Source: a virus
Taxonomy: Duplodnaviria; Heunggongvirae; Uroviricota; Caudoviricetes
Length of the DNA: 37,035 nucleotides
Direction: 5' to 3' (one strand)
Virus record (IMG/VR): IMGVR_UViG_2541047861_000014
Shown: positions 1 to 385 of the stretch, piece by piece
Position numbering within the stretch: position 1 is the first letter of the stretch
How the letters are laid out: every line of letters begins with the position of its first letter
The notes under the pieces: generated by a model
Database searches by the model: none
What the model was told of the DNA's origin: nothing
What the model saw: the letters and a program-made list of their open reading frames with translations, nothing else
Program-made: the position numbers and the translations under genes

Positions 1-90
1 TTGCCTCCCCCCCGTTGATGGGTAAAATAGCCGCAATTTTTCGTTTTCAACAAGCGCGGCGCGATGCCGCTTACTCAAGAAGAAAGAATT

Positions 91-165
91 ATGACGTTGT
101 CTCCTTATTTGCAAGAGGTGGCGAAGCGCCGCACTTTTGCCATTATTTCTCACCCCAATAATTAA
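91..165 (+). pseudogene. prfC: prfC (peptide chain release factor 3) 5' fragment: ~22 native codons, then divergence and stop
   Basis: ATG at 91 encodes [22 protein letters not shown], which I recognise as the RF3 N-terminus (from memory); the reading frame then diverges (NN-stop at 163-165) instead of continuing into the GTP-binding motif. Upstream 1-90 looks like a host promoter/leader. Confidence 0.6.
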
Positions 166-385
166 TCCCAAATTAAAGCTCTTTTACTCTTTCAAAATCC
201 TTTCAGTTAATTGAGGTCTAGTTATATAACTCATTTAAATACATATAGTTATGTGGCTTCTTTAATTGAAAATTCTTTCATGTAACTTTAAATCGATCAG
301 GTTGCTTTCATCAAAAATCTGTACATATGCTTGTACATAATGTACAAAGCAGCAGAGGTGTTTTGCGATTTGTACAAGGTGAGTA

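Follow-up and report, generated by a model that had tools for sequence, protein, structure and literature searches.

The first 385 nucleotides of the window (the whole 37,035-nucleotide stretch analysed, IMG/VR record IMGVR_UViG_2541047861_000014) are very probably the attL of a lambda-like temperate phage of Escherichia coli, one that carries a 2H10-type int-att module and replaces the start of prfC, the gene for release factor 3 (RF3), at its attR. The prfC integration site and this arrangement are already known from Stx phages and SXT/R391 elements. The parts that might be worth further work are two only: the clade-wide pattern of prfC and lepA targets, and the kinship with SXT/R391.

Four att sites and a 14-bp core

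The original prediction, made from the letters of the window, placed here a prophage junction: the first 22 residues of RF3 at positions 91-156, behind what looked like the native promoter, and then phage DNA bearing int. Positions 1-155 are identical (155/155) to the yjjG-prfC spacer and prfC 5' end of E. coli K-12 MG1655, where the gene order is yjjG-prfC-osmY. The annotated RF3 start codon of K-12 falls on position 91, and the first mismatch, which marks the switch from host to phage, is base 156. The host stretch includes the first 21.7 codons of prfC; the third base of codon 22 (CCC) is already phage DNA. Upstream, the spacer holds a promoter-like site at 1-28 (TTGCCT at 1-6, a 16-nt spacer, and TAAAAT at 23-28). 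The encoded string matches the K-12 prfC start exactly, and the gene directly 5' of position 1 in matching genomes is yjjG, ending just upstream, rather than an intact prfC. Each of these points bears the prediction out. One detail needs correction: the frame, said to break at the junction, reads on through two phage codons (AAT AAT) to a TAA at 163-165. The resulting orphan ORF of 24 codons lies in a stretch annotated by RefSeq as a partial pseudogene in matching genomes.

Early stops of this kind recur. Among 42 prfC-type attL junctions, the orphan prfC fragment usually stops at most 2-5 codons past the junction (after NN, NI, DITL, or NDSH). This could reflect selection for a quick end to translation, or simply shared ancestry of the element-side core.

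Four att sites were aligned: attB from K-12, attL from the window, attR from the prophage of NCTC11151 (99.9-100% identical to the window), and attP from the free phage 2H10. The alignment is an exact reciprocal exchange at a 14-bp core, ATTATTTCTCACCC, which is the sole block common to all four sites; strand exchange must therefore fall inside 142-155. This identifies the junction as attL, and the core lies within the interval of about 130-160 where it had been predicted. The uninterrupted K-12 locus, a comparison proposed at the outset, fits the exchange exactly. In the host, the core covers prfC codons 17-21, which encode I-I-S-H-P just before the GTPase P-loop. Assuming either a lambda-like 7-7-7 layout or the ATTATT-N9-AATAAT geometry of the candidate core-type sites, the putative overlap region is the 7-bp CTCACCC at 149-155. 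Most of the 42 related attL junctions have a similar element-side motif after the core, of the form RAT-AWT with variations.

The junction has the attributes of a tyrosine-recombinase att site: reciprocal attL and attR with a common core, and an adjacent integrase (Int) with catalytic and arm-binding domains, accompanied by a directionality factor (see the table).

Features of the attL region and its neighborhood, in window coordinates
Feature	Position	Strand	Basis or remark
Native yjjG-prfC intergenic region and ribosome-binding region	1..90	+	K-12 identity; promoter-like match
Orphan prfC 5' ORF, 22 RF3 codons + 2 phage codons + TAA	91..165	+	translation
Common core ATTATTTCTCACCC, 14 bp	142..155		exact in attB, attP, attL, and attR
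Candidate core-type Int sites, inverted repeat ATTATT 142-147 / AATAAT 157-162	142..162		read from sequence
Phage P' arm of attL	156..385		clustered TGTACAWA repeats
Integrase, 407 aa, P4-type tyrosine recombinase	386..1609	+	Pfam, phrog_1, 2H10 identity
IS2-like element (IS3 family), 1,331 bp	1776-3106		between int and next phage gene; absent from 2H10 and NCTC11151
Excisionase (recombination directionality factor), 64 aa	4233..4427	-	phrog_1553, E = 6e-36

Transcription of int runs away from attL and is codirectional with the orphan prfC start. Its product contains the Pfam domains Arm-DNA-bind_3 (PF13356), Phage_int_M (PF22022), and Phage_integrase (PF00589), and shares 99.8% protein identity with the Int of phage 2H10. 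NCBIfam assigned this Int to no specific family, the one match being to PRK09692 and below threshold. The excisionase has weak matches to HTH_17 and Xis_Gifsy_1.

On the P' arm, TGTACAWA occurs at 320-327, 332-339, 341-348, and 369-376; four of the five matches in the whole 37-kb window fall within 320-376. The 7.5-kb attP locus contains 10 copies against 0.77 expected, and eight of these are within about 200 bp of the core. A 22-nt direct repeat, TGTACATATG(A/C)TTGTACATAAT, is present on both arms: one copy is at 320-341 of the window, and the other, on the P arm, stops 16 nt short of the substitute ATG. We infer that the TGTACAWA clusters are arm-type Int sites. Two more copies of TGTACATA lie elsewhere in the 2H10 locus (1273-1280 and 1317-1324), just 5' of an invertase gene and about 1.7 kb from attP.

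How common is this junction? Used as a query, positions 1-1700 have at least a partial match in 5,425 of 5,426 complete E. coli genomes; in 699 the match spans 80% or more of the query. The attR junction (at least 80% of its length) is found in 699 genomes, the same number as for attL plus int, and about 13% of complete E. coli. A third kind of prfC 5' end was considered for H104 and H105, which gave the weakest attR matches, but in both prfC is uninterrupted and ordinary except for a SNP.

A close phage relative is Escherichia phage 2H10 (LR595862, 46,288 bp), which is 99.4% identical over window positions 114-1775 (bases 114-155 of this match being the overlap of prfC mimic and core) and 99.5% identical over 3107-21047. 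Leaving the IS aside, the NCTC11151 prophage is 100.0% identical to the window over its left 25 kb, and it is 99.93% identical over 22598-37035. The prophage is a mosaic: the half from int to lysis is 2H10-like (99.4-99.5%), whereas the head and tail half, 22598-37035, is that of the NCTC11151 prophage (99.93%) and differs from 2H10. This latter half encodes a fusion of ClpP-like protease and major capsid protein. An IS occupies the same spot in only two complete E. coli genomes, neither of them an exact match; the better, 2013C-3033, is about 530 bp longer than the window across the IS region. More widely, int and the P' arm are 95-99.9% identical in DNA to 33 phage records (Int protein, 96.6-99.8%), and an IMG/VR search with Int alone for divergent attP sites returned only copies 97-100% identical.

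The prfC prophage of E. coli EC21GDE043 is split in its terminase large-subunit gene by an element of about 10.8 kb (positions ~15,600-26,400). With its own integrase, a primase, an Icd-like protein, a BRO-N protein, and a ClpP/capsid fusion, this element looks like a phage satellite.

A phage-borne start for prfC

The phage carries a mimic of about 21 prfC codons, which has its own ATG and ends in the common core. In the free phage 2H10 the two arms are contiguous, and attP holds this mini-ORF. The far end of the NCTC11151 prophage lies beside a dinI-like gene and is followed by a prfC gene of 528 aa, annotated as intact. The chimeric RF3 encoded there is full length, one residue shorter than the native protein, and differs from it only at N-terminal residues 3 to 7 or 8. 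(The first 7-8 residues of RF3 also vary between species.) The near-identical NCTC11151 prophage thus provides what the original prediction proposed to look for at the other end: an intact prfC with a phage-derived 5' region and a repeated core. The attR was read from this prophage, the far junction of the source strain being outside the window, about 9.9 kb beyond its end as judged by colinearity with NCTC11151; the attR of the source strain itself is expected to read ...TTGTACATAATCAAAGAGACAACAATT-ATGACAAGCCTTTTGGCCGCAGAGGTAGCGAAAAGAAGAACCTTTGCAATTATTTCTCACCCGGACGCC.

It had been argued that integration into a gene of essential function obliges attP to supply a replacement promoter and N-terminus. 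The replacement N-terminus is there, in the 2H10 mini-ORF and the NCTC11151 chimera. The obligation is not: prfC is dispensable in E. coli, where delta-prfC strains are in routine use (PMC2791158), and Ogura et al. (2007) remark that it does not figure on lists of essential genes (PMC2323221).

Host and mimic can be compared codon by codon. Over the nine codons, V to A, to the left of the core, there are eight base differences in six codons (GTG to GTA, AAG to AAA, CGC to AGA twice, ACT to ACC, and GCC to GCA), all of them synonymous. The mimic also keeps the ATG and a host-like AATT-ATG context. Because every difference left of the core is synonymous, the mimic is conserved for protein rather than for DNA identity. 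Selection on the protein would leave just such a pattern, which suggests that the mimic is under purifying selection for the residues that it encodes.

According to Ogura et al. [quoted passage not shown] A strict sigma-70 scan 5' of the phage-borne prfC start found no site on that strand; a lenient scan of the 220-bp dinI-prfC' spacer gave nothing convincing, the best candidates having 8/12 matches (for example, TTTTCT-17-CATAAT). We infer nonetheless that a promoter within this 220-bp spacer of the P arm drives the chimeric prfC. No report of a test for changed RF3 level or regulation in prfC lysogens was found in the literature searched.

The DinI-like gene (phrog_189; 2H10 locus 2471-2719, minus strand) marks the right prophage end and is divergent from the chimeric prfC; the same gene stands beside attR. 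Its promoter, TTGACA-18-AAAAAT (2H10 locus 2732-2781), overlaps a LexA-box-like palindrome, ACTGTATGAATAAACAGT. Given this LexA-box-like dinI promoter, SOS-regulated transcription would start about 150 bp from the substitute prfC start.

The course of integration follows from these elements. The P4-type tyrosine Int recombines the 14-bp core of attP with the identical codons 17-21 of prfC, splitting the gene: the host promoter, ribosome-binding site, and 22 codons are left at attL as a dead-end ORF, while the ATG and recoded codons of the other phage arm are fused in frame to the remainder of prfC at attR, yielding full-length RF3. The int gene, about 230 nt downstream in the same orientation, would in the lysogen lie behind the host prfC promoter and in the circular phage behind the phage's substitute promoter. 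Hypothetically, then, integration would swap two promoters between int and prfC. No terminator-like site was found between the orphan prfC start and int, and the two have the same direction, so the host prfC promoter points into int in the lysogen.

Three other readings must be weighed. Integration might instead knock out prfC, the phage N-terminus being no more than an extension of att homology, or a relic of evolution, and the chimera remaining silent. Such a reading would account for the want of a good predicted promoter before the phage-borne start; it also draws on the dispensability of prfC, which means that expression is not forced, on the remarks of Ogura et al. [quoted passage not shown] A silent leftover, however, fits poorly with eight base differences in nine codons that are all synonymous, with retention of the ATG and its AATT-ATG context, with a chimeric ORF that is full length in the sampled lysogen, and with the independent mimics of the SXT/R391 element R997 and the lepA phage SPN3UB, which keep host residues through different codons. 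Moreover, Hochhut and Waldor (1999) reportedly found that SXT restores a functional prfC. We consider the knock-out improbable.

The junction of a phage that replaces the prfC start might nevertheless be a non-recombining fossil, the prophage being a fixed and decaying remnant owing to the IS beside int. The IS2-like element of 1,331 bp directly 3' of int is absent from both 2H10 and NCTC11151, and some relatives are clearly degraded, that in EC21GDE043 having several ISs and the element within its terminase gene. But here the IS is intergenic, both int (407 aa) and xis (64 aa) remain intact, with int 99.8% identical to that of 2H10, and the core and arm repeats are unchanged from the 2H10 attP. 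Decay is thus doubtful, though it deserves some weight; in any case it concerns present activity rather than the identity of the junction. As for a rearrangement, deletion scar, or assembly artefact, nothing speaks for it other than the truncated gene itself. This reading is refuted by the exact reciprocity of attB, attP, attL, and attR, by the identical junction in 699 independently assembled complete genomes with an equal attR count, and by the same type of junction in more than 40 species. Replacement of the prfC start at attR is the reading retained below.

An integrase clade at prfC and lepA

The clade was scanned with one genome per species, using an alignment of four Int relatives. Eighty loci were recovered, with Int proteins 43-98% identical, in genera that include Trabulsiella, Xenorhabdus, Serratia, Pseudomonas, Shewanella, Marinomonas, Halomonas, and Ectothiorhodospira, along with many Acinetobacter and MAGs of the Burkholderiaceae. 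Targets were assigned for 84 integrases: the 80 genome loci, the window, and three phage records. In 43 of the 84, window included, a truncated prfC start lies ~200-235 nt 5' of int on the same strand. Another 16, including that of phage SPN3UB, follow a truncated lepA start, MKNIRNFSIIAHID; seven, in Acinetobacter, lie downstream of alaS; and 18 have other targets. The spacing is conserved across many genera: int begins 197-236 nt 3' of the truncated target, on the same strand, at 41 of 42 prfC-type junctions and all those of the lepA type. A search for tRNA targets near the Int relatives that lack a prfC or lepA fragment returned none. Some of these sit at the 5' ends of other genes, and the Pantoea members of the clade follow a truncated gene start reading MDIKQLIYL...

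At the lepA-type loci, Int is 44-46% identical to that of the window and lies ~208-224 nt 3' of the truncated lepA start. An example is SPN3UB, a Gifsy-1-type Salmonella phage at the lepA 5' end, with a sister Int 46% identical to the window Int. Its target is a paralogous GTPase gene, and int again lies downstream (~208 nt) on the same strand. Its attP (1256-1300 of the locus) contains a recoded mimic of the lepA 5' end, followed by stop codons (MKNIRNFSIIAHIDN, then two stops). The SPN3UB core, ATCATTGCTCACATCGATAATTGAT, is identical to the prfC-type core, ATTATTTCTCACCCCAATAATTAAT, at 19 of 25 positions and has the same 6-9-6 layout; both types share the geometry ATYATT-N9-RATAAT, whereas the crossover region is GCTCACATC in the lepA type and TCTCACCCC in the prfC type. 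SPN3UB differs further in that its arm repeats, as judged by eye, are TGGACAC-like rather than TGTACA, and in that xis directly follows int.

The lepA-type integrases do not form one group (0/100 neighbor-joining bootstraps). That of Acinetobacter johnsonii shares 54% identity with prfC-type integrases but no more than 45% with the lepA type of enterobacteria. These trees are crude, built by neighbor joining from one alignment, and most loci are represented by the attL side only. The sequences nonetheless suggest repeated switching between homologous pre-P-loop codons of two paralogous translational GTPases. We give an even chance to a broader reading, according to which this is an old and widespread Int clade whose default target is the I-I-S-H-P codons of prfC. 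The Int of SXT/R391 would be a distant member, and on no fewer than two or three occasions the clade would have shifted to the I-I-A-H-I codons of lepA, keeping the geometry, changing about three crossover bases, carrying a recoded 5' end, and swapping promoters on integration. The sister integrases at the paralogous lepA position provide a natural series for shifts in tyrosine-integrase specificity. In the open-access literature, no work linking the prfC and lepA sites was found.

Comparison with known systems at prfC and other gene ends

Replacement of gene ends on integration has familiar precedents. Phage 21 and e14 integrate at icd and carry a substitute gene end that keeps the ORF intact after integration. 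They replace the icd 3' end, for which neither promoter nor start is needed; the window phage, in contrast, replaces a 5' end, with start codon and expression signals. Duplicated 3' ends at integration sites are mentioned in the large survey of Bobay (2013), and it is there that prfC appears among the core genes 'disrupted' by prophages (PMC3603311). Contrary to that listing, a prophage at prfC rebuilds the ORF, and lists of 'disrupted' genes probably overcount wherever a 5' end is replaced. About 13% of complete E. coli genomes encode an RF3 with a phage-derived N-terminus and, presumably, phage-derived expression signals.

The closest systems are the lambdoid phages of E. coli at prfC. For O103, Ogura et al. 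(2007) reported an Stx1 phage integrated at prfC and an altered RF3 N-terminus (PMC2323221), and Stx1a and Stx2c phages of CC119 also sit at prfC (PMC10132054). Together with 2H10 and Ayreon, these phages share with the window the attachment site and the replacement of the RF3 N-terminus. In the CC119 Stx1a/Stx2c phage records, DNA identity to the window int and P' arm is about 95%. By its int-attP module and its location at the prfC 5' end, the window phage belongs to this group, but it differs from the prfC Stx phages and from 2H10: the window contains no stx, an IS2-like element follows int, and the head and tail module is unlike that of 2H10.

The SXT/R391 integrative and conjugative elements (ICEs) also integrate at the prfC 5' site (Hochhut and Waldor 1999, as cited in PMC2791158), and membership in the family is defined by near-identity of Int_SXT, at about 99% (PMC2791158). 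The representative compared was R997 (PLSDB, circular record), which has setR, setCD, eexS, traG, and mobI. R997 uses the same prfC codons, with core ATTATTTCCCACCC against ATTATTTCTCACCC in the window, and likewise carries a substitute prfC start. On the element side, its sequence stays prfC-like for a few more bases (TGATGCC against GGACGCC in the host). Both arms of R997 and of the phage contain (G)TGTACAAA repeats, including a pair just 5' of the substitute ATG, and the GTGTACAAA repeats on both arms of R997 resemble the TGTACAWA repeats of the phage. The two Int proteins are 38% identical over their full length (E = 7e-89). (In the circular R997 record, part of the core appears twice at the origin, which reads ATCATC, then ATTATT.)

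The differences are as plain. The SXT/R391 elements are conjugative and are not phages; in them, int points toward att, is convergent with xis, and is SetCD-dependent, whereas the window int points away from attL. With 38% identity to R997, the window Int lacks the near-identity that defines the family. No conjugative backbone is annotated either: neither tra nor set genes, of the set that includes tra, setCD/setR, and mobI, appear in the window or its near-identical relatives, which encode instead phage head, tail, lysis, and lambdoid regulatory genes. The prfC site itself is shared, with the same codons and a near-identical core. Judged by these comparisons, the window phage is SXT-like at its att site but stands outside the SXT/R391 family. 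The integration modules of the phage and the ICEs are homologous and act on the same 14 bp, for which this phage family and the SXT/R391 resistance elements compete.
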